DNA of 44,186 nt from a virus (taxonomy: Duplodnaviria; Heunggongvirae; Uroviricota; Caudoviricetes): IMG/VR virus record IMGVR_UViG_3300023707_000001. One strand, 5' to 3'. Positions 4,635 to 43,715 of this stretch are shown here, in pieces. The stretch's first letter is position 1. Every line of letters starts with the position of its first letter. The notes beneath the pieces are model-generated. The model saw only the letters and a program-made list of their open reading frames with translations, was not told the origin of the DNA and ran no database searches. A program made the position numbers and the translations under genes.

Positions 4635-5888
4635 TTAAGCGTCCATGGTTAACATGTTCAAAATCGACTTTGATGCGTCATAAGTGATTCCTGTCATTTG
4701 ACGAACAAGTCTGTCTTTGTTCTGGGGCTCATTATTTTTCATAACAGCTTCCAGAACCCGCGCATTAAAATGGTCCATAACAGCCTCGACTCGATCCTTT
4801 ACGGTTTTTCGGAAGCCTTTGTAATCCTTTATATTTTCAGCATAAATGCGCTGGTCTTTCTTAAGTTGCTCATTTTCATCCATGAGCTTCTTCATTTGCG
4901 CTTCTACGGTTTTTATAACCTCTTCCTGATTCAGGGCTTCGGTTTCCAGCTCTTTTATTCGAGCGGCAAGCTTGGCCTCTTCTTCATGGAAGTGTTTTTG
5001 CTGAATGGTATTGTGTGTAGCAATGGCCTTTAGTAAAGTTTCCAAAGACTCGTTTTCAAAACCTTCGTCAGCCTGAGAAATTTTAATATTATTATTGGAT
5101 TCCGAAGCTTTGTCACCTAAAAAATGCTTTATGTTTTCATCCAGCATCCGTGACTCTCTTTCAGAAGCCTCTAATATACTATCATTATCTAGGTCATCTG
5201 TCAACACTTTTTTGGGACCATTGTCCCTATTGTGTTGAGCACGTTCAAAATCAACGCTGATTACGGATGGCTTTGCGTCTGCGCTCGTCCTGTGAACACA
5301 GAACAGACACCTGATATCATCAAATCTACCCTTATAAGACATAATGCCCATTTCGACCAATGCCCCGATTAGGTTATTTACTGCATCTTTGGGTTCCCTG
5401 ATGTATGCCATTAGCCTACGACGTTTTATCGGCTGATAAACATCATAGTCTTTGGCGGTAACCAGAATTGTATCCAAAATCGTCAACAGTTTTAACAGGA
5501 CCACATTATTGCATCCGTCGATTTTTTTCCTTGCTTTTGCGACCACTTCGTCAATCGTTGCTTGTTCGAGTTTCCGAAAATTTTTTTCCGTAAACTCATA
5601 TGCTTCGAACTCTTCTTTGGACCTTAGTTTAGTAAACATCATTGGAGATTTTTCACGGCGGACTTTTGCCGTCATGTCAACCTCCGGAATAATCATGTTG
5701 TCAGTAAACGGCAGGATACGTCTAATTTCCATACTTTTACGGTCATTATACGGTATCCCGTGTTTGCTAAGTGTCTCATTCAGTTCTTTGTTACTTAGCT
5801 TCGTTTGTTCTCCAAGGGGGAGCTGATTTGCCACAAAATCTGCAGCGCTCTGGTCGTTACCATTCTCCTTTGTCATATTCATATCCAA
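4635..5888 (-). CDS. Hypothetical protein with C-terminal coiled coil
   Basis: 417 aa; GGAGG SD; heptad-like region EEEAKLAARIKELE...ENEQLKK. Confidence 0.75.
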   Translation of the reverse strand: MDMNMTKENGNDQSAADFVANQLPLGEQTKLSNKELNETLSKHGIPYNDRKSMEIRRILPFTDNMIIPEVDMTAKVRREKSPMMFTKLRSKEEFEAYEFTEKNFRKLEQATIDEVVAKARKKIDGCNNVVLLKLLTILDTILVTAKDYDVYQPIKRRRLMAYIREPKDAVNNLIGALVEMGIMSYKGRFDDIRCLFCVHRTSADAKPSVISVDFERAQHNRDNGPKKVLTDDLDNDSILEASERESRMLDENIKHFLGDKASESNNNIKISQADEGFENESLETLLKAIATHNTIQQKHFHEEEAKLAARIKELETEALNQEEVIKTVEAQMKKLMDENEQLKKDQRIYAENIKDYKGFRKTVKDRVEAVMDHFNARVLEAVMKNNEPQNKDRLVRQMTGITYDASKSILNMLTMDA

Positions 5889-5918
5889 CCTCCGTTCACA
5901 TCCCCCGAGGCGAAAGTT

Positions 5919-7892
5919 TTAAGCACACACATCCATATATCTGCTGTCTATCTGTTTTATAAACGGTGATGGGGCAACCGCCCTGGCTCTACCGTTCTGC
6001 ATCATGGTCTGTGTGCTGCAAATGACGAGATATTCTTCTGCCCTCGTCATTGCAACGTAAAAGAGTCTCCTCTCCTCTTCTACGTCTTTTACTCCCTGAC
6101 AACGCCAGCTTGGGATAACACCTTCATTGGCTCCGATAATAAATACCATACGGAACTCTAATCCCTTTGAAGCATGCATGGTCATTAGAGTGACCATGTC
6201 ATCCGATTCGGCGTCGCCTTCAGCCGTAGTCAGTAAGTCTTCTAAAAACTCTCCCATTTCAATATACGTTTCTGCAATGTTCTCCAATTCGCGGATATTC
6301 TTAACACGTTCCTGATAAACTTCCTCATCTTTTTCGGTTTTTTTCAGGAAGTTAAGGTAATCAAAAGTGGTAAGTACTTTTTTAACTACATCCGCTGGTC
6401 GTGCCTCATTTTCGTCCAACCATTGGCTGATAGCCTCGAGTTTCCCAATAAACGCAGCAAGCATAGCTTTTCGCGAAACCTGTTCCTTGATTTTGCTCAA
6501 GCACAGTATTGCTGTGTTCACATCTATAATAGCATAGGATTTAAGATTCTGCAACGTTAAATCTGTAATTAACTCAATAGATTTGTCGCCGAGACCGCTC
6601 TTGTGAGCCTCCAAAACTCTTCTTAAGCTGCTCATATTCGATGGGTTGTGAAGGAAGTCCAGGAAGCTAAGCACATCTCTTATTTCCTTGCGGCGATAAA
6701 AAGATACGCCGCCCGTTATTGTATACGGAATTTTCATTTTCAGAAAAGCATCCTCAATATTACGGGACAAAAAAGATGTGCGATAAAGAATTGCAATTTC
6801 CCCATATTTCATGGTGCCTGTATCTACAATCTTCTGAATCGTAGATGCTACAAACTGAGCCTGTGCTTCCGGCGTAAGCTTTTCTGCGTAAATGATTTTC
6901 TCACCTACTGGATTTTCTGAGAAAATGTTTTTCTCATCCGGGCGGTGATTATATCGAATCAGACTCTGCGCAGCATTTACGATGGTTTGTGTGGAGCGAT
7001 AATTTTGTTCAAGGAAGAAATTCTTGTGTTTTACCTTGTTGACCGTGCCAAAGAGTTTGTCGATATCGGCTCCCCGGAAGCCGTATATGGCTTGGTCAGA
7101 ATCGCCTATGAGACAAAGGTTTTTTGTCTTGGGATTTGTTAATAAAAACAAGAATTTTGTATCGAGTACGGAACTATCCTGACACTCATCGGCCATGATG
7201 TATTTATACCTGTCATGGATTAATTGGCGTACTTCCATATTCTCTTCCAAGATGGTCGTCATGTTAAAGAGCAAATCGTCAAAGTCCATGGCGTTCTGTT
7301 CTTTTAATCGTGCCCGATACAATGAATATACCTGCAGCCCGTTTTGACAAGATGCAAGATTGCCATATTTAAGTCTGGCCTGTTCCGGGGTCAAATGTTC
7401 TCCCTTGAACTTGGAAATCCACCATAAAGACACGTCTGCCTTATCGTGTATCTCCAATTTTTTGTGAATCTTATTTACGATGGCCGTCTGGTCATCAGGG
7501 TCAATGATTGAGAAAGTATCTTTGTATCCAAGATAGGCGCAATAGCGTCTAAGCTGGCGTGCGCAGAAGCTGTGATACGTGCTCACGGTTACGCCTCTGG
7601 CCTCGTCACCAATGGTCCTCATCACGCGTTCATGTACTTCATTTGCAGCTTTTTTGGTAAATGAAAACGCAAGGATATTCGTAGACTTAACACCGCACTC
7701 AATCATGTAGGCAATCTTTTTTACGAGCGTACTCGTTTTACCAGCTCCCGGGCCTGCACTTACCATCGAGAACCCTTCATAATCCTGTGCCACTTGTCTT
7801 TGTGCCGGGTTCAACCCGTCTAAAATCTTCTCCTTGCGCTCATTGATTTGCTGCGCAGGAGTACAAAAATCATCTTCGTTAATGAAGCCCAA
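5919..7892 (-). CDS. pcrA: UvrD/PcrA SF1 helicase
   Basis: AGPGAGKT, FSFTKKAA, STYHSF, DECQD, GDSDQAIYGFRGA, QNYRS, MTMHASKGLEF, EERRLFYVAMTRA; TTG start after GGAGG. Confidence 0.93.
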   Translation of the reverse strand: MGFINEDDFCTPAQQINERKEKILDGLNPAQRQVAQDYEGFSMVSAGPGAGKTSTLVKKIAYMIECGVKSTNILAFSFTKKAANEVHERVMRTIGDEARGVTVSTYHSFCARQLRRYCAYLGYKDTFSIIDPDDQTAIVNKIHKKLEIHDKADVSLWWISKFKGEHLTPEQARLKYGNLASCQNGLQVYSLYRARLKEQNAMDFDDLLFNMTTILEENMEVRQLIHDRYKYIMADECQDSSVLDTKFLFLLTNPKTKNLCLIGDSDQAIYGFRGADIDKLFGTVNKVKHKNFFLEQNYRSTQTIVNAAQSLIRYNHRPDEKNIFSENPVGEKIIYAEKLTPEAQAQFVASTIQKIVDTGTMKYGEIAILYRTSFLSRNIEDAFLKMKIPYTITGGVSFYRRKEIRDVLSFLDFLHNPSNMSSLRRVLEAHKSGLGDKSIELITDLTLQNLKSYAIIDVNTAILCLSKIKEQVSRKAMLAAFIGKLEAISQWLDENEARPADVVKKVLTTFDYLNFLKKTEKDEEVYQERVKNIRELENIAETYIEMGEFLEDLLTTAEGDAESDDMVTLMTMHASKGLEFRMVFIIGANEGVIPSWRCQGVKDVEEERRLFYVAMTRAEEYLVICSTQTMMQNGRARAVAPSPFIKQIDSRYMDVCA

Positions 7893-15908: not shown

Positions 15909-17499
15909 CTATCCCAATGTATATTTTCATATACCACAAAGCTGTGTTTGGGGGTGGACTATATCATCGCTCCGGGGGCTCACTCCCCCCATCATCACGC
16001 CTTGCACTTGGGCTACAGGAATTTCACCTGTGCCTACTCTACTCGCTTATCAACCCTGCCGATTCTCACGGCTCTTATGGATATATAGCTTTCGATAGTC
16101 TCTACACCTTCCTCGTATATCCTACGAGGCTTGGCACGGTATTGGCTGCTATCCATCTCTGGACCGTAGCGTCTCTTACGAAGCGTATTCGCGCATCTTT
16201 TGCCTTATATAACTTCTACCGTTAGCCCAACTTTATTGGACACCCTAGATTTCTAGGTTCACAAGGTTTTTGGAAACCCATAATATTGCTTAACTTTATC
16301 CTGCATTTTTCTAAAAATATACTTTTGAACGCTGCCTGGGTCATTGTCCAGATCACATTCTGCAATCTGAACTACCTCATACCCCATCTTTTCTGCACTT
16401 AGCCTCTTCTTCTCATCGTTATCTCTTACGGAATCGGTCGAGTGCCAATATGTACCTTGGACTTCAACAAGTAAGAAGAAGCCGAGGTCATAGTCATAAC
16501 GCCAGCCATTAATCTCTTGCTGTGGGATGAAGCTAAAATGCAAGTTTGATAAAATTTCTTCAAACTTAATTTCGGCTGTAGAACGATAGAACCATGTATT
16601 TCTTTTCGTTTTCCACCCAGAACCAAAGATTTGGCGACGTGCCTTCGAGAACGATGCCTCAGACATTTTGTACTTAAGGGCAAGTGCTCTGTTGGATATA
16701 AAAGGATTCTTAAAGTCATCCTGAAACTCTTGCGTTGAAGGAATTATATATTCCCCATTTTCATGGCATAAAATATTATTGTCCTTCAAGAACTTTACAA
16801 GTGCCAATACAGAAACATTTATGTGTTCAGCAATTTCCAGTAAGGACACGCCCTTCTTCCCGCTATGGGACATTTGTTCTTTCACGGCGTTAATAACATA
16901 TTCCTGTTCATCCTTCTTCCATATTTTTCCTATACCATGGTTGATACATGGAGTTTTCTTAATCCCCATGATTCTTGCCTGTTTTAGGATATGGGATTTT
17001 GAACACTTAAAATGTTTTGCTATATCCTCTACCGTACATTTGTCAGACATGTACATTTTTCGTAGCTCAGTTAGCTTTTGCCGGCCCCACACATCACGGT
17101 TTCGGTAAACCCTCTCGTAATCTACGTTAATATTATACTGTGTCCTTAATACCCTTTCAAGTACAACTTTGTCTTTATGCACTTTTTTGGCTATTGTTCC
17201 AAATGCAACACCTTTGGATATAAGCTCCCTTATTGTATTAAGCTGTTCTAAGGTAAGAGTTTCTACTGTTAAATTGTTTGACTTAAGGACTCTCGCAACA
17301 GTGCTCCTGCCCCTATTTATCGTTGCGGCAATCCTTGATATGTTCATGCCGCTACTTGCCAATTCTTTTATGCGCTCAATTTCGTTATCTGTTATTCTTT
17401 TCTTAGACTTCATAATACCACTACTTTCAAAAATTAAGATTAAGTGCTATTAAGTTCTAAGTATATTTTTGCAATCAGGCTTTGTTAAGCTGCCAGTTG
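15909..17499 (-). mobile_element. Group I intron in recA (1591 nt) carrying a homing endonuclease
   Basis: 5' exon ends in U and intron ends in G. Core motifs GAAGGUGUAGAGACUA and GAUAUAGUCC (P7). Internal guide sequence (IGS) AUAUUAUGG-GUUUCCA at 16271-16286 pairs with both exons. Splicing restores the frame. Confidence 0.92.
16259..17413 (-). CDS. Intron-encoded endonuclease: tandem HTH repeats + Vsr/DUF559-like (EDxHD-type) domain
   Basis: About five HTH-like repeats, then STAEIKFEEIL...YDY...VEVQGTYWH...RDNDEKK...GYEVVQI. Confidence 0.8.
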   Translation of the reverse strand: MKSKKRITDNEIERIKELASSGMNISRIAATINRGRSTVARVLKSNNLTVETLTLEQLNTIRELISKGVAFGTIAKKVHKDKVVLERVLRTQYNINVDYERVYRNRDVWGRQKLTELRKMYMSDKCTVEDIAKHFKCSKSHILKQARIMGIKKTPCINHGIGKIWKKDEQEYVINAVKEQMSHSGKKGVSLLEIAEHINVSVLALVKFLKDNNILCHENGEYIIPSTQEFQDDFKNPFISNRALALKYKMSEASFSKARRQIFGSGWKTKRNTWFYRSTAEIKFEEILSNLHFSFIPQQEINGWRYDYDLGFFLLVEVQGTYWHSTDSVRDNDEKKRLSAEKMGYEVVQIAECDLDNDPGSVQKYIFRKMQDKVKQYYGFPKTL

Positions 17500-19115: not shown

Positions 19116-21602
19116 TTAAGCTGCCGATTCTTCGATGGTTTCAGCTTCCTCGGACGGAGCCAGGGTGATGGATGCAATTTCTGCACCATCTGCCAAGTTA
19201 ATTGCCTTTACTCCGTGTCCGCTACGGCTCTGGGTGCTGATATCCTTGACCGGCGTGCGGATAATCATGTCATTTGTCGTAACAACAAATAAGGTTTCAT
19301 CCTCATCCGCTTTTACAACAGCCATGGCATGTCCGCTCTTTGGCGTCGGTTTGTAGATTGTAATACCCTTACCACCGCGCCCTTTCTTCTGCGGAATGTC
19401 CGTCATACTGCAGCGCTTACAGAGCCCCTTATCCGATACGACAAGCAGGGTATCGTCGCTTGCTGTGGATACGGCAGAGATTATATAATCATCTTCCGTC
19501 TTAAACCGCATAGCGATATTCCCCTTGGCCGTACGGCTGGTAAGCGGAATATTCTCCATCCCCGTATGAACAGCAAAGCCGTTTCGAGAAACCAGAACTA
19601 CACTTCCTTCGCCGGTTGTCAAAATGACACTTGCAAGGCCGTCATCATCATTGAGCGTAATGACCTTTAATCCGTTCTTGCGGATAGTCATATTCTCCAG
19701 ACTGATACGTTTTGCAAGCCCATTCTTCGTAACCATAAGAAGCTGATGGGTTGTATCGCCATGTGCAATCGCAAATACTTTTACAACCTTTTCGCCATCC
19801 TCAAAGGTGACATAGTTATTAAGGTACTTGCCCATAGCTGCCTTAGAGACAATGGGGATGTGGTATGCAGGAACCGTGTAGGCCTTGCCCTTATCCGTAA
19901 CGATAACAATATCGTCCTTGTTGCTCATATAGAGAACTTCTTCGACAAAATCATCTTCGCGGAGCTTAATCCCATTGCCTTTACCACCGCGGCTCTGCTG
20001 GCCGTAATCCTTGGAACGGATTGCCTTGACCATACCGTTGTGCGTGTAGAACATTACAATGTTCTCGTCCTCGATAAGGTCACGGTCATTCACCTCATTG
20101 CACAGCTGTGCAATTTCTGTGCGTCTTGCGTCGCCTTTGAAATAACCTCTGGCAATATAGTTGTCAATATCCTGAACAAAGTCCTGTATCAGTGCGACCT
20201 TATTGCTGAGAAGGTGTTTGCCGGCCAAGATTTTCTTCTTCAGTTCTTCTGCCTCCTCAATCAATGCGTTCACATCAAATGAATTCAAAGAACCAAGCTG
20301 GCGAGCATAAAGACCCTTTGCCTGCGCTTCGGTAAAGTCAAATTTCGACATAAGATTGGTGATGGTTTCCTCACGGTCCTTAGAACCACGAATAACCTTA
20401 ATCACTTCATCAATTCGAGAATTGGCATTGATATACCCCTGCACAAGCTCTAAACGCTTTGCATGCTGTTCCATATCAAAACGGATAACCCGCACTTTAG
20501 ACTGGAGCTGGCTTTTAATGTATAGCTCGATTATCTGTAGCAGAGACAACCCTTCAACCGGGCGGCCGTCCACCAGCATAACCGAATTAATGGAAAAAGT
20601 ACTTTCCATTTTTGTCTGCTTAAAAATGTTATTAAGGACGATGTCGGGATTACCGTTTTTCTTCAATTCGATACAGATTGCGATTTTCCCTTTTTCGGAC
20701 CTATCGACTACGTCTGCCACATTATCCTTAAACACTTTGTCAGCCTCTTCATTATACACCTTTTTCCCAAGGTCTTCAACCAAAGATTTTTTGTTGATAC
20801 CGTATGGGATTTCGGTGAATATGATGGTTGTGCGCCCTCCGGATTCCTTGATTTCGTACTTGCCGCGAATACGAATACTCCCCTTACCTGTTCGGTAAGC
20901 CTTACGGGCTTCTTCCGGATTAACAATTACACCTCCTGTCGGAAAGTCCGGTGCTTTCACGATGTTAATAACATCGTCTAATTTTGGCTGCTCGCCCTTA
21001 ACTACGCAACCAAGCACATGTTTGATTGCTGCAAAAATATCGCCGGCGTAATGAGGCGCCATGGACGACGCCATACCGGTTGCGATACCGGTTGTTCCAC
21101 AGCAGAGAGCATACGGGAAAATTCCGGGCAGGTTTTTTGGTTCTTTTTCGTGCCCATCAAAGTTCGGAACCATATCCACCGCATTCTTGTCAAGCCCTTC
21201 CAGCATGGATTCACCAATTTTGGAGAGCTTGCATTCCGTATATCTCATTGCAGCGGGTGGGTCTCCATCTATGGAGCCACAATTGCCCTGAAACGTAATC
21301 ATCGGATATCTTTTGGTCCAGGGTTCCGCAAGGCCAACTAATGCGTCATAGGCGCTCTGGTCACCATGAGGATTGTATTTACCAATTACATCACCGACTA
21401 CGCGGGCACATTTCTTGGGCACCGCTGAGTTTTTAAGCCCCATCTCATACATAGAATAGAGCGTATATCGTTGTGACGGTTTTAATCCGTCCTGCACCTT
21501 AGCCAAAGCGCGGGAGAGGATAACCTCTTCCGCGTAAGTAAGGTACAAAGATTGAACAAGTTCTTCCGCACGAACATCAACAATTCTGTTATTTTCACTC
21601 AT
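19116..21602 (-). CDS. gyrA: DNA gyrase subunit A
   Basis: QDGLKPSQR, GKYNPHGD, AAMRYTE (catalytic Tyr), PDFPTGG, GyrA-box QSRGGKG, beta-pinwheel repeats, acidic tail. Confidence 0.95.
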   Translation of the reverse strand: MSENNRIVDVRAEELVQSLYLTYAEEVILSRALAKVQDGLKPSQRYTLYSMYEMGLKNSAVPKKCARVVGDVIGKYNPHGDQSAYDALVGLAEPWTKRYPMITFQGNCGSIDGDPPAAMRYTECKLSKIGESMLEGLDKNAVDMVPNFDGHEKEPKNLPGIFPYALCCGTTGIATGMASSMAPHYAGDIFAAIKHVLGCVVKGEQPKLDDVINIVKAPDFPTGGVIVNPEEARKAYRTGKGSIRIRGKYEIKESGGRTTIIFTEIPYGINKKSLVEDLGKKVYNEEADKVFKDNVADVVDRSEKGKIAICIELKKNGNPDIVLNNIFKQTKMESTFSINSVMLVDGRPVEGLSLLQIIELYIKSQLQSKVRVIRFDMEQHAKRLELVQGYINANSRIDEVIKVIRGSKDREETITNLMSKFDFTEAQAKGLYARQLGSLNSFDVNALIEEAEELKKKILAGKHLLSNKVALIQDFVQDIDNYIARGYFKGDARRTEIAQLCNEVNDRDLIEDENIVMFYTHNGMVKAIRSKDYGQQSRGGKGNGIKLREDDFVEEVLYMSNKDDIVIVTDKGKAYTVPAYHIPIVSKAAMGKYLNNYVTFEDGEKVVKVFAIAHGDTTHQLLMVTKNGLAKRISLENMTIRKNGLKVITLNDDDGLASVILTTGEGSVVLVSRNGFAVHTGMENIPLTSRTAKGNIAMRFKTEDDYIISAVSTASDDTLLVVSDKGLCKRCSMTDIPQKKGRGGKGITIYKPTPKSGHAMAVVKADEDETLFVVTTNDMIIRTPVKDISTQSRSGHGVKAINLADGAEIASITLAPSEEAETIEESAA

Positions 21603-21631: not shown

Positions 21632-23200
21632 TTATGCGGCAAACGTGGTTGCCATAATCATTTCCTTACGGGGTGCTACGTTTGCTCCAAGGCATGTTTC
21701 GAGCATCTGCTCTGCAACCACGGCATCTTCTACCGTTACACGGCGAAGAATTCGCGTTTCAGGATTCATGCTCGTTTCCCACAGCTGTTCGGCACTCATT
21801 TCGCCCAGCCCCTTAAATCGAGAAATCGTCCAACCATTAAGTTCATCACGAACAGCATTCAATTCTGCAGTGGTATAGAACCAACGGTCCTTTTGGCCCT
21901 TCTTAACCGCTCTGAACAATGGCGGTTGCGGGATATATACATGCCCATGAATAATCAGTAGCGGTGCATGTCTCCAGATATGGCCAATATGCAGGATGAT
22001 AATATGTCCACCATCACTATCTGCATCGGCAAACAACATAATCTGGTCGTAGTTGAGCTTGGACTCATCAAATTCATCATCGATACCACAACCCAGCGCG
22101 GCATAGAAGACGCCAAGCTTGTCATTATCGAGGACTTCTTTTGTACTCATGCCATCTTTAACTGCATTCTTTACCTTACCAAAGATTGGAAGTATTGCCT
22201 GCGTCTCCGGATCGCGCCCCTCTTTTGCAGACCCTGCGGCCGAATCTCCTTCAACTGCCCAAAGCTCAGCTTTGCTTGGGTCTTTTGTATGGCAAATCAC
22301 TAATTTACCAAGCGTTTTGAGTTTAGGATTAGCCGCCTTGCCGTTTTTAACACGCTCTCTGGCCTCTTTCGCCTTAATACGCATCTTGCGGTACAGCAAT
22401 GCTTTCTCCAGAATGACCTCGGCTTCTTTGGGATTCTGCTCAAGATAATCATAGAACACATCCTGCAAGGCATTTGCGATAATGGTTCTTACCTTAGGCA
22501 TATCCAACTTGGTTTTGGACTGCCGGTCAAAAGTGGGCTTTTTATAGCGCACCGCAATAATACCAACAATGCCACGATTCGTATCGTTTAACTCAAAGTC
22601 TTTCTTTTCTTTGATTTTTTTCTTTTCGATACCGTACTTACGGATAGCATCGCAGATGCCCTGAGTAAAGCCCTGAACATGTGTGCCGCCATCTTCGGTG
22701 TCGATAGAATTTACAAAGCTCTTAAGAGACTGATCTTCCCTGGTTGTATACCCAAAGGAGATATCAAACGACAAATCACGCGGCAAATCTTTCGCCGGCA
22801 CGGTTTTATTCAAATGGATTTTGGTTTCTACCGCAAGCTCCTTGCCCTTAAGGAGCTGTTCGAGATATGCCTTCAGGCCATCTGTATAACAGAAACTCTT
22901 TTTTGCTACCTTCCCTTCCGGGTTGATAATTGCCACGTTAACCTTAAGCTCATTGTTAAGGAATGCCATCTGCTGGCACATTTCCATAAGGCTTATCGGA
23001 TTAACTACAATATCATCAAACATGGTCGCATCCAACTTGTAGGTGATGGTTGTACCATGCTCATTTTCACCGCAGGTTCCCACGACTTTCTGGCGCTCTT
23101 TATAGAGGCCCTTTTCGAAAGACACACGATAGACTTTGCCCATTGCACGTACTTCCGAGACGAACAAATCGGACAAAGCGTTCACTACAGATGAACCCAT
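21632..23200 (-). CDS. gyrB: DNA gyrase subunit B exon 3
   Basis: MGSSVVNALS, GGTH, VEGDSAAGS, PIFGKVKN, ADADSDGGHI, RFKGLGEM. Confidence 0.95.
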   Translation of the reverse strand: MGSSVVNALSDLFVSEVRAMGKVYRVSFEKGLYKERQKVVGTCGENEHGTTITYKLDATMFDDIVVNPISLMEMCQQMAFLNNELKVNVAIINPEGKVAKKSFCYTDGLKAYLEQLLKGKELAVETKIHLNKTVPAKDLPRDLSFDISFGYTTREDQSLKSFVNSIDTEDGGTHVQGFTQGICDAIRKYGIEKKKIKEKKDFELNDTNRGIVGIIAVRYKKPTFDRQSKTKLDMPKVRTIIANALQDVFYDYLEQNPKEAEVILEKALLYRKMRIKAKEARERVKNGKAANPKLKTLGKLVICHTKDPSKAELWAVEGDSAAGSAKEGRDPETQAILPIFGKVKNAVKDGMSTKEVLDNDKLGVFYAALGCGIDDEFDESKLNYDQIMLFADADSDGGHIIILHIGHIWRHAPLLIIHGHVYIPQPPLFRAVKKGQKDRWFYTTAELNAVRDELNGWTISRFKGLGEMSAEQLWETSMNPETRILRRVTVEDAVVAEQMLETCLGANVAPRKEMIMATTFAA

Positions 23201-24318
23201 CATTATGTTCACGGAGTTCGCTACTCTCCGCAGCTTTTAAAAGCATCTCTGGCTCTCACCAGAAGTTCAGACTATATCTTCGTTCAAGGATGGCTAGTCC
23301 TATCATCACGCCTTCCATTTTGATTTAAGGGGTTTTCACCCACCCGCTCGGGCCCTACTCCTGTTGGTGCGGTCGAATCCACACCCCAATGGGGATAGTC
23401 GTTGAACCTTTTACTTTAACTTACATATCCTAATTCGGATTCTTTTTGTTTTCTTACTGCAATAGCAAGCTCTAATGCGTTTGGATATTTCTTGGTGGAA
23501 AATTTTTTGGAGTGAACCTTTCCGTCATTTTCCATCCATGATGCCCGGATATATTCCGCACCATTTCTGCCAATCTCTTTTGAGATTCCATTGCACCCAA
23601 ACTTATTAGTTTTTCTTGGCGCAGAATTGCGCTTGTTTATCGAAGTCGTTACAACTCGCAAATTACTAAGTTGGTCATCAAGGCCATTCCTGTTAATGTG
23701 ATCGACAACTTTCTCGACATCTTCTTTCTTAAGCCCTAACAAAAATCTGTGAAGCTTCCCATACTTATCCGATGCGGCATAGTATGTTCTTGAATTTGTC
23801 GGTATCTCTATAAACCATTTTGCTTGTTGTACTTCTTCAATCTTGTCTTTATCAAACAAAACCTTGCATTCTTTCTGTAGCTTTGCGCTCCATACAAGCA
23901 TTTCCGCATGGTCTTCTTTTTCGATAATATAGTTTTGCAGTTTCTTTCTCTTCTCGAGAGACTGTTTAGCAATTTTCTCTGCAATAGTTCCATATTTACT
24001 GATTGTGTAGTTGTATTGTTTACTATCAACACATGTCTGAAAACCTTTTCCCGTTTTCCGTACACATTCTAATTTTGCTGTCACGTTTTCCTCCTTCCTT
24101 TGGAGGTATGTAAGTAAAAGTAACTTGGCTGCGTGGTTGCCCATACTTATCTCTTGCCTTTTTACCGTACCCGGCTAATTACTCCGGCCATCATGTCTGT
24201 CACCAGCATGACTTGGTAGCTAAGAGCTCTTAGGGATTAGAGCCTCCGCCAAGAGGCCATTTTTTCGTTCCCGCAGTTAAAAAGATTTTAGAACGGCATG
24301 GGGTTATGCTGCCTGTTC
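23201..24318 (-). mobile_element. Group I intron gyrB-I2 (1118 nt)
   Basis: P1 AGAACGGU/GCCGUUCU (8 bp, G-U at the splice site); P10 CCCAU/AUGGG; AACUGCGGGAA...ACGCAGCCAAG; AAGGUUCAACGACUA and GAAGAUAUAGUCUG; terminal G. Confidence 0.93.
23416..24084 (-). CDS. Intron-encoded HNH homing endonuclease with AP2-like domain
   Basis: LHRFLL...VDHINRNGLD..SNLR..T.SINKRN followed by AP2-like GISK...RASW...KKFS...LAIAVR; GTG start after AAGGAGG. Confidence 0.88.
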   Translation of the reverse strand: MTAKLECVRKTGKGFQTCVDSKQYNYTISKYGTIAEKIAKQSLEKRKKLQNYIIEKEDHAEMLVWSAKLQKECKVLFDKDKIEEVQQAKWFIEIPTNSRTYYAASDKYGKLHRFLLGLKKEDVEKVVDHINRNGLDDQLSNLRVVTTSINKRNSAPRKTNKFGCNGISKEIGRNGAEYIRASWMENDGKVHSKKFSTKKYPNALELAIAVRKQKESELGYVS

Positions 24319-24369
24319 ACCGTTCTTACCGCCCGTATCCTCTTTGTAGCCATTGTCGCCGGAAAATTT
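24319..24369 (-). CDS. gyrB: gyrB exon 2 (51-nt micro-exon, KFSGDNGYKEDTGGKNG)
   Basis: Fills exactly the gap between LSAGG and MGSSVVNALS; joined protein is 644 aa with a continuous ATP-lid motif. Confidence 0.92.
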
Positions 24370-25911
24370 CAGTATGTTATCGTCAGGCTTTTTATCCTGA
24401 CTTCTATGCCATTACGACATAGCTCGGCGTACCTATTCATGCAATATAAAGTCATGACACGAAGCGGACTCTTGGGAACATTATATTCTCAAACGAGTTT
24501 CAGTTCCTACGCTCTGCCCCTGACTAAGACTTTACTCTTAGCCTTCGGTTCGGATTACGGATGCCTCCGCTTCCCCGCTTAATTCCGCTTTAATTATCTA
24601 CATTCTTCCATGACTGTTGAATGTAGACGGCAAAATTCTAATGCTTTTTCATACTTTCTTGGTAAATAATATTCAGTATCTCCATAAAGCCACTTTAAAA
24701 TCTTATATATTTTTGTTTTATCGACAGTTGTTATATTAAAGATTGCGCCGTTTGAATATGGGGCATCAAAAGTCATACCGACTTCTTGCAGAACTTTCTC
24801 CCTGATATATTTGACCATTTCAAGAGAGGAGCCGATGCCAATTTCCCATCTTCGTCTATATCCTTCTGTATTTCGAGTATAACGTGATACCCATCCATCA
24901 CCATCAAAAAAGCCGCGGATATATGCTTTGACATACTCGTCTGGAATATTGCTTGATGGCTTTTCGTTGGTTTGTTTGTTGGGAAATACATTATGGGACA
25001 TCAGATCATGTTCCATTCCGTGCAACACCATATGTAAGCCACATATTTCATATCTTTTATCTAGTGTCGATAAGTGTTGTTTTCTTTCATATATAGGATG
25101 TGTAGCAGAAAGAGCCTTTTTGAGTCTATGAAGCTGGTCGTAATCCCTAATTGCTAATGCAATAGCTAAAACACTAGAATCGCCATGCATAAATACAGAG
25201 CCATCAGCTGTAATGAATCCTAACCAATATGCTTTTTCTTCAGTATCAATTGCTTTGAAGAATGACTCATTAAGTGTATGCGGCTCATATTTGTAGGTCT
25301 TTACCCCGCCAACGTAGCTCGTCCCCATTTTTGTTTTGACGAGAACATTTTCATGTAACTTTACTCCTGCCTGTTTTAACACCTTATTAAGCACATGCGG
25401 AGTTACATTATATTTTTCCGCACATTCTCTCACGGACATTAACTCATTGGCCTCATATTCCGGAATGGCAGCGCGAGCTTTTTCGCGTTCCTTTTCCCAT
25501 TCATCTGTCTTATCCAAATTTACATTGTGCTCTTTTAGATACTTGTATGCAGTTGTCTTAGATAGGCCAAAGATTTTTGCACATTTTATGGGCGACAGTT
25601 CATTCTTATTTTTCAAATAGAAATTAACAAACTCTTCTCCATCTTTTTTGTGCTTTTTATTTGTCCTTAATTCGTAAACGCCTGCTGCATGCAAGTGTTT
25701 AGTTAAAGTCGCTGCCTTAATTCCGTATCTTTCTGCACAATCCTTTATGAGAATGTCTTTGTCAGTATTAAAACACTTTACTGCTTCTTGAATTTTTTCC
25801 TGAATATATTTATTTGCCATGCGTAGACCTTACCTTTTTTTGTTTATTTTTATCTACGCACGAATTACCAAGCGATGTTCGCATTAACACCGTTCATTAG
25901 AATTTATTTTT
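24370..25911 (-). mobile_element. Group I intron gyrB-I1 (1542 nt)
   Basis: Exon ends GGU and intron ends ACUG. P3 AAGCGGA/UCCGCUU; P7 GCGUA/UACGC. IGS GCCGUC (24626-24631) pairs with GGCGGU; adjacent CAUUAGAAUU pairs with the intron 5' end. Confidence 0.88.
24594..25820 (-). CDS. Intron-encoded double-motif LAGLIDADG endonuclease with N-terminal HTH repeats
   Basis: KAYWLGFITADGSV and YIRGFFDGDGWV motifs; three HTH-like repeats in the first about 150 aa. Confidence 0.9.
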   Translation of the reverse strand: MANKYIQEKIQEAVKCFNTDKDILIKDCAERYGIKAATLTKHLHAAGVYELRTNKKHKKDGEEFVNFYLKNKNELSPIKCAKIFGLSKTTAYKYLKEHNVNLDKTDEWEKEREKARAAIPEYEANELMSVRECAEKYNVTPHVLNKVLKQAGVKLHENVLVKTKMGTSYVGGVKTYKYEPHTLNESFFKAIDTEEKAYWLGFITADGSVFMHGDSSVLAIALAIRDYDQLHRLKKALSATHPIYERKQHLSTLDKRYEICGLHMVLHGMEHDLMSHNVFPNKQTNEKPSSNIPDEYVKAYIRGFFDGDGWVSRYTRNTEGYRRRWEIGIGSSLEMVKYIREKVLQEVGMTFDAPYSNGAIFNITTVDKTKIYKILKWLYGDTEYYLPRKYEKALEFCRLHSTVMEECR

Positions 25912-26226
25912 ACCGCCCGCCGAAAGCACCGTCAAAGCTACTTCCATCTGGGAGTACCCTTCATGCGAAGGGTCATCGCACGGAGCAACAGGAATGCCAC
26001 GGCCGTTATCCTGTACACGGATAACATTGTTGCGCATATCATATGCGACATTGATTGTATCACAGAATCCTGCTTTTGCTTCATCAACCGAGTTTGCCAA
26101 AATCTCGGAGAAGCAGGCAAGCTGGGGATATGCGCCCGAGATATATACATCGGGATTTTCTCTGACCGAATCAGGGAAATTGTTAACCTTAATGGTTGTC
26201 TGGCTGTTCAAATTTGTTACTGCCAT
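25912..26226 (-). CDS. gyrB: gyrB exon 1
   Basis: VRENPDVYI, EILANSVDEA, VQDNGRGIP, LTVLSAGG (GHKL motifs). Confidence 0.93.
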
Positions 26227-43244: not shown

Positions 43245-43715
43245 CTGCTACTTAAAACATAGACAAAAGTGTCTACATCAAGATGTTTCGCTACAATCTC
43301 ACGATTTGTAGTTCCTTGTTCATCGTGTATGCTTTCGCCGTTTTTACAAACAAGCTAATCGCAAGTTCTAGTACACTCCAAAGGCGTAAATTCCCGACTA
43401 GCCATCGGTACATATCGACAGTATCTTGTTTATGACATTCTGCCGATTACATCTAGTAGCTTTCTCCTTTCATAATATTTTTATTTTTGCGTATTGGCTC
43501 GCCAGCCTTGCTTGGTTCTCGCATTTACCACTGTCCAACGGCTACCATCAGGGTGCTATCCCGTAGTTAGACGGACTGTTTCAACCGCCTCTGGTTTATT
43601 TCCAGCCATTCCGACTGCTGTAAAGTCAGCACGAACTAACTCAATCGGTTTTTATTGAGTCTTTAGCATATATTGCTACACACTTTTACATATTTGAGTA
43701 TGTTTTTAGTTACTT
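43245..43715 (-). mobile_element. ORF-less remnant of a TnpB-type IS200/IS605-like element (ends approximate)
   Basis: Segment ATGTACCGATGGCTAGTCGGGAATTTACGCCTTTGGAGTG...TTTTAAGTAGCAG resembles, from memory, right ends of Firmicutes tnpB elements. Hairpin-rich left part with an orphan SD (GAAAGGAG) and no long ORF. Confidence 0.55.

Follow-up and report, generated by a model that had tools for sequence, protein, structure and literature searches.

Introns in phage genes for type II topoisomerases are already on record. They were reported in gyrB of three jumbo phages of Staphylococcus, MarsHill, Madawaska and Machias (Korn et al., 10.1101/2020.12.14.422802), and two of them in gyrA of Bacillus phage AR9 (10.1101/2020.12.14.422802). 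These introns were predicted from protein alignment only, in phages unrelated to the one studied here, and the likeness to our locus is that a phage topoisomerase gene is interrupted. The original prediction for this locus named no gyrB example; given these reports, novelty of an intron in phage gyrB is not supported. Also described are group I introns that lie close together on either side of a small exon, with possible skipping of that exon. Exon skipping occurs in Twort orf142, which has three introns (Landthaler and Shub 1999, cited in PMC11878797), SIOphi and phiNIT1 have split genes, with skipping in SIOphi, and for Bastillevirinae and Twort small exons between introns are described along with skipping in up to 47% of transcripts (PMC11878797). 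The T4 introns of td, nrdB and nrdD, of subgroup IA2, carry I-TevI, -II and -III, and a hairpin hiding the Shine-Dalgarno sequence was described for I-TevI (PMC2988022). Introns in the RNA polymerase gene of Bodo saltans virus (PMC5871332) and in gp210 of PhiPA3 (PMC11620839) resemble our case as independent invasions of one essential gene with different endonucleases, and suggest interference competition as a candidate benefit, but concern another gene and other viruses. Finally, intron-riddled gut jumbo phages with RNA-confirmed splicing have been described (PMC12880540).

The window, by which we mean the whole stretch of 44,186 nucleotides analysed here, belongs to a virus record of 206,782 nt (IMG/VR) that is 87% complete, has a terminase match and was found in animal faecal and gut runs. 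Among cultured phages no close relative was found, the best GyrB match being below 38%. The window includes a replication cluster (SSB, a ClpX-like ATPase, gyrB, gyrA, recA, helicases and primase), in which the gyrase genes are arranged as follows.

25912..26226, minus strand: gyrB exon 1, 105 codons, ending ...LSAGG with GGU; HATPase_c match; read through in L001 and L012
24370..25911, minus strand: intron A, group I and IA3-like, 1542 nt, last base omega-G 24370
24319..24369, minus strand: micro-exon, 51 nt, 17 ATP-lid codons, peptide as in the intron-less L001 and L012
23201..24318, minus strand: intron B, 1118 nt, last base omega-G 23201; RF00028 matches its 3' half (E 0.0017)
21632..23200, minus strand: gyrB exon 3, 522 codons and stop; DNA_gyraseB, Toprim, DNA_gyraseB_C
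19116..21602, minus strand: gyrA, intact, directly downstream of gyrB; PF00521, PF03989

When joined (26226-25912, 24369-24319 and 23200-21632), the exons form 1935 nt that encode 644 aa and a stop, with no internal stops. The product has complete GHKL ATPase, transducer, Toprim and C-terminal domains, and its partner gyrA is present. The predicted 644-aa join is borne out by L001 (IMG/VR, GyrB 89.8% identical in amino acids) and L012 (about 90%), which have neither intron, and where the same frame and an identical 17-aa peptide are read straight through between exactly both junctions. With seven more intron-less GyrB proteins of 644 aa, at 91.5-92% identity, the search for intron-less alleles proposed with the prediction succeeded. 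These alleles also fix the positions of the junctions, which follow the U|...G| rule as predicted: U, of a GGU, is the last base of both 5' exons, and G the last base of both introns. Position -1 of both sites is U in every intron-bearing allele, as against A and C in L001 and L012. The observation is confirmed as real, and gyrB introns and exon skipping were already known as kinds.

Aligned to solved GyrB structures, the micro-exon is the lid, from the lysine after 'AGG' through the glycine-rich loop. In E. coli GyrB, K103, Y109 and G114-G117 are ATP-binding residues, and we take their equivalents in the micro-exon to bind ATP as well. The micro-exon has 51 nt in L007 and L010 and 54 nt in L098. 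Gene callers miss this 17-codon exon and output a GyrB of 526 aa from a GUG/AUG inside intron B. In gyrB of the same phage family, three further intron sites are occupied (EG|DS, DAD|xDG and KGL|GEM).

We favour, with a probability of about 0.9, the reading that a pair of selfish group I introns, both equipped with a homing endonuclease gene of their own, independently occupy two of the glycine codons in the ATP lid of GyrB in a family of large gut phages. It is very improbable that the gene is broken, or GyrB made as separate polypeptides, and the introns decayed relics. The RNA contigs do lack a joint, the ORFs of L010 are decayed, and the 526-aa product of the gene callers does start at a GUG/AUG inside intron B, but the ribozyme cores remain paired even where ORFs decayed, the micro-exon is conserved in frame and peptide in four lineages, and the split would fall inside one ATP-binding domain and leave a 17-aa piece without its own start. 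To a chimeric assembly of co-occurring phages we give practically no credence: a single sample contains both phage types, and contigs end within the intron A that they share, yet L008 matches the window locus at 100% identity over 8.1 kb, the proteins are present on 7-10 contigs from several sources, and the identity shared at the junctions, under 20 nt, is too short for a false assembly path.

The two insertions, both selfish introns in our preferred reading, are of unrelated structural types. The components of intron A are listed first.

25895..25905, minus strand: 5' arm of a clamp, a P1 extension closing the ORF loop L1; 11-bp complement of 24643-24633
25818..25862, minus strand: hairpin hiding the Shine-Dalgarno sequence and AUG of the LAGLIDADG ORF, -15 kcal/mol
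24594..25820, minus strand: LAGLIDADG endonuclease ORF, 408 aa, HTH and double motif; PF14528, phrog_4645
24629..24643, minus strand: 3' arm of the clamp and internal guide A; GCC pairs with exon GGU, and upstream bases can pair with the start of exon 2 (P10)
24370..24628, minus strand: ribozyme core A, with P2, P3 (24590/24468), P4, P7 (24512/24431), P7.1, P8 and P9s

The predicted fold confirms intron A as a group I intron with a covarying core: it has a U.G pair at the 5' splice site in P1, a terminal omega-G, and a P3-P7 pseudoknot and P4-P6 core with covariation. The fold z of the core is -3.2, and P7 pairs GCGUA (24512-24508) with UACGC (24431-24427). We call it IA3-like, given its GCRUA/UAYGC P7 and P7.1 insert. 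The core family is common, with 76 pattern matches in viral contigs, and occurs on dozens of viral contigs and also in cultured phages. Among its 43 distinct cores, the variable pair of P7 is standard in all (A-U in 35, G-C in 8), as is the P4 pair (G-U or G-C). The outer two pairs of P3 take four forms and follow standard pairing in 43/43 and 42/43 cores. The IA3-like introns of Bastillevirinae clades 7-8 share this core, including the P7 and the P7.1 insert (PMC11878797). RF00028 does not match intron A at the gathering threshold nor at E<=5, and likewise misses the L010 copy.

The 11-bp clamp (25905-25895 with 24643-24633) closes a 1.25-kb loop, L1, and is retained with compensatory changes in L010, L017 and L098. 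It props a short P1, conserved below the splice site as GGU/GCC only, because the next bases belong to P2 and because L010, L017 and L133 carry A at -4. A conserved P1 of 6-7 bp was rejected, since it competes with P2 and is broken at -4 in these three lineages. The predicted pairings between guides and exons thus stand for B, with an 8-bp P1, and for A as GGU/GCC, the conserved P1 of A being no longer than that.

The LAGLIDADG ORF sits in L1, and its last codons double as clamp, guide (IGS) and P2. It matches LAGLIDADG_3 (PF14528) above cut-off (E 1e-8), with two motifs at aa ~199 and ~301. Its homologs P0028 and P0032 lie within the same intron at the same gyrB site; L017-19 and L098 carry homologous ORFs, 37-41% identical, in an intron A located there as well. 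The ORFs of L010 have decayed, and its ribozyme cores are still paired. Hairpins of differing sequence that hide the Shine-Dalgarno sequence are found in L098 (-20.9 kcal/mol) and L010 (-10.2 kcal/mol). Such hairpins, and ORFs overlapping ribozyme elements, are features that this locus has in common with the T4 introns.

Intron B has the following components.

24290..24303, minus strand: internal guide B, 8-bp P1 with the end of the micro-exon and 5-bp P10 with the start of exon 3
24151..24226, minus strand: P5abc-like three-way junction carrying a bulge rich in A; P5a, P5b and ACC/GGU covary
23416..24084, minus strand: HNH endonuclease ORF in L6a, 222 aa, GUG start behind AGGAGG; PF13392, phrog_99
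23201..23415, minus strand: 3' core B, with P7, P7.1/P7.2-type inserts, P3', P8 and P9s; P3 compensatory in L097

It also has the hallmarks of group I, with a U.G pair at the 5' splice site, P10 and omega-G. The 8-bp P1 is accompanied by a P10 of 5-6 bp in the window, L007, L010, L097 and L098. Across six sequences, 92% of the cells of the structure are paired (slid controls, 30-46%), and in 13 pairs both partners have changed; the structure was drawn on the window sequence, a choice in its favour. P7 pairs GACUA (23400-23396) with UAGUC (23274-23270), so that the cores differ as predicted from the two P7 helices, both of which were located. RF00028 matches the 3' half of B with 25 bits in the window (range 25-38 bits) against a cut-off of 50, and the Rfam gathering threshold misses both introns.

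As modelled, the 5' half of intron B departs from what is usual among phage introns: the P4 strands enclose one additional hairpin and a three-way junction whose bulge is A-rich, resembling P5abc of Tetrahymena (sequence taken from PMC13420581). Primary likeness to that sequence, considered by itself, is weak (score 33, reached in 47/2000 shuffles; the genome background reaches 36). Its 3' half has IA2-like hairpins of about 75 nt between P7 and P3'. The P7.1/P7.2 inserts would suit IA2, yet a large P5abc-like domain is present too; that domain in turn would suit IC1, but for the hairpins between P7 and P3'. Because of this combination, we file intron B under neither IA2 nor IC1. The ORF of the td intron is located in L6a, a placement shared by intron B. 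Unlike the T4 introns, B has a P5abc-like domain and lacks P2, and A has its ORF in L1.

The HNH protein matches HNH_3 (PF13392) above cut-off (E 5e-6), and no Pfam AP2 match was found on it at E<=0.01. The predicted pair of endonucleases, LAGLIDADG and HNH-AP2, therefore holds for both nuclease domains, and 'HNH-AP2' can be used for resemblance only. The cargo of L6a varies: L098 has an HNH 64% identical to that of the window, L007 an ORF of 84 aa unrelated to it, L010 an insert that has decayed and L097 none. The intron B family appears to be rare. Beyond the gyrB site it was seen at one other locus among viral contigs (L096, apparently terL), and none was found in GTDB genomes or cultured phages.

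All four possible allele states occur: neither intron in L001, L012 and P0003, A only in L017-19, B only in L097, and both in the window (L008), L010, L098 and the pair L007 and L133, two contigs of one sample whose linkage we infer. The twin state is thus found in four lineages. Intron A is at the identical site in L008, L010, L017-19, L098 and L133, and intron B in L007, L010, L097 and L098. The distribution is patchy in the GyrB tree, where in three supported clades intron-bearing proteins have intron-free ones as sisters; the tree was built on exon-3 residues 123-440, and its long basal branches are unsure. The states and the tree support the view, which agrees with the predicted invasion of the lid by two elements 51 nt apart, that two unrelated group I introns with different endonucleases occupied the ATP lid independently.

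Intron A appears to have crossed between phages recently, independently and without B. Between the window and the L001-type phage (L133, L007), it is identical at 267/268 and 115/115 positions, and in DNA run X7, where window-type and L001-type phages are both present, it is ~99% identical over 1 kb. Exon 1 and exon 3 are 78.7% and 81% identical in the same comparison, and the micro-exon of L007 is L001-type at 6/7 diagnostic sites and was not carried along with the intron. Near-identical introns between diverged exons, with the micro-exon left behind, suggest a recent transfer of A without B. Block transfer of both introns and the micro-exon was rejected on account of the L001-type micro-exon of L007.

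Upstream of A the sequence switches lineage within 9 nt, and downstream within 8 nt; for B the corresponding distances are 9 and 6 nt. The first diagnostic sites flanking A, at -10 and +9, are already of the host-lineage type. A 40-nt upstream co-conversion tract in the X7 comparison, whose table hides differences less than 31 nt from the end of a piece (7 hidden sites match the count), was rejected since in L133 and L134 the sequence is of the host lineage up to -10. Flanks are expected to travel with the intron in a single break-repair event (PMC2988022), and, unlike the T4 system, the natural alleles here keep no flank co-conversion tract. The missing tract does not seem to fit a single event of this kind, and serial erosion would be needed. 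The close lineage switches at both introns, without flank transfer, might also result from spread of A by reverse splicing followed by cDNA or RNA-templated repair, instead of DNA break repair. We consider this route unlikely, as an intact double-motif LAGLIDADG ORF accompanies A across lineages at 36-43% GyrB identity, and serial homing can explain short tracts.

In the contigs of two RNA runs of low depth (X4 and X12), no spliced joint across either intron was found. The X4 RNA contigs end at 25914/25919 and 24322/24323, no more than 8 nt from the two 5' splice sites, places at which DNA runs X7 and X9 continue. We do not count these ends as evidence of splicing, because they come from one study, have no loose ends and lie beside GGCGG motifs.

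Exon 1 joined directly to exon 3 would be in frame and give 627 aa, and the product would lose the lid lysine and the glycine-rich loop. The original prediction of an in-frame, ATPase-dead product thus holds for the frame. In the window, exon 1 could pair with the guide of B over 7 bp in register (-8.1 kcal/mol, versus -10.7 for the micro-exon), and this pairing falls to 3 bp in L010 and, through the same A at -4, in L133. Skipping was measured in Twort and SIOphi, and in the window it is a possibility predicted from the sequence; unlike in those phages, the introns are of two unrelated structural types, each with its own endonuclease.

Skipping may be a by-product rather than a selected output. 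A maintained switch, in which an ATPase-dead GyrB of 627 aa would tune or poison gyrase during infection, would agree with the frame of the skipped product, with the 7-bp pairing of exon 1 to the guide of B, given that no more than 3 conserved pairs anchor exon 1 to A, with the twin state in four lineages, and with documented skipping in Twort and SIOphi. We nevertheless hold it to be highly unlikely. The cross pairing is 3 bp in L010, L133 shares the A at -4, and many close relatives have one intron or none; moreover, the guides of A and B each require GGU, so that a Gly codon closes either 5' exon, and this accounts for the likeness of the exons. A broader proposal is distinctly unlikely: that B is an undescribed structural subgroup, with a Tetrahymena-like P5abc on an IA2-like core, and together with the weakly anchored A gives substantial, stage-dependent skipped mRNA for ATPase-dead GyrB, so that two unrelated ribozymes regulate gyrase, with flank-free jumps that might reflect an RNA route.

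Under our preferred reading of two independent selfish introns, each would fold on the pre-mRNA, guanosine would attack the U.G pair of its own P1, omega-G would direct ligation, and two splicing events would restore the 644-aa GyrB. The ORFs would be looped out, that of A in L1 by the long-range clamp and that of B in L6a, and their translation from the pre-mRNA held down by the hairpins hiding Shine-Dalgarno sequences, as for T4 I-TevI. Upon co-infection, each endonuclease would cut the intron-free site, and repair would copy the intron in. Repeated rounds of homing within a lineage would then wear the co-inherited flanks to less than 10 nt. We propose that the introns target the glycine-rich lid since this segment has no way to mutate away and since introns are rarely lost precisely.

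In the accessible literature on gyrB and group I introns there was no report of the two ATP-lid sites, and we could not find the hybrid fold of B or the flank-free transfer of A reported either. The practical importance lies in annotation, since gene callers give a truncated GyrB of 526 aa without the 17-codon exon and the Rfam default misses both introns. The finding, of modest importance, extends the known targets of phage introns by two precisely located sites in the ATP lid of GyrB and reveals a phage family with five or more intron-occupied sites in gyrB. Alleles with none, A, B or both introns in co-occurring phages make a compact test system for the interaction of neighbouring homing sites, and the same set suits the study of how much flank is co-inherited and of the skipping of a tiny exon by two unlike ribozymes.

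In one study only (RNA run X4), contigs ended at most 8 nt from both gyrB 5' splice sites, at 25914-25919 and 24322-24323, and continued across both 3' splice sites. The other introns and RNA elements of this phage and of its relatives (L-numbered loci) are listed below, G000 being the whole phage genome that contains the window and C1 its contig.

Group I introns and other RNA elements
Window 15909-17499, minus strand: group I intron interrupting recA
Window 16259-17413, minus strand: 384-aa ORF contained in the recA intron
Window 43312-43384, minus strand: RAGATH-18 RNA (Rfam score 70)
G000:C1 202485-202592, plus strand: group I intron near a terminase match
G000:C1 204305-204509, plus strand: group I intron near the same match, which the two flank
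L010 9417-9750: gyrA intron inserted at PHG|D, without ORF
L001 7183-8442: additional gyrB intron sequence
L013 4313-5590: same
L016 5790-6040: same
L017 6840-7190: same
L018 6617-6754: same

Three additional gyrB sites are occupied in the phage family (EG|DS, DAD|xDG and KGL|GEM), all of them in L013. The additional intron of L018 is just ~138 nt long and ends 6 nt past P7. In L010, palindrome-rich inserts (5700-6040 and 6575-6790) destroy both endonuclease ORFs, yet the ribozyme cores of both gyrB introns are intact; the ORF-less gyrA intron of this locus is similar to gyrB intron A. In three lineages, the 5' arm of the hairpin hiding the Shine-Dalgarno sequence of the intron A ORF is followed by TAAAAA (window 25848-25853, L098 258-264, L010 5677-5683). 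This motif might belong to a late promoter inside the intron, of the kind present in T4 td.

Without splicing, the read-through peptide of recA in the window would terminate in QLAA-stop. Read-through into intron B would end in EQAA-stop in the window (24304-24318) and in RQAA-stop in L007 (167-181), whereas in L010, L097 and L098 it would hit a stop immediately. Read-through of the Toprim intron would give AA-stop in five sequence variants (L001 coordinates 7183-7206). Across the whole genome, 17 of the 137 ORFs of at least 150 aa have an Ala-Ala C-terminus (0.9 expected), GyrB and GyrA among them. This excess, together with a phage-encoded tmRNA whose tag ends in LAA, a ClpX-like gene, and the presence of ClpP beside that gene in relatives, suggests that the phage runs degron control.
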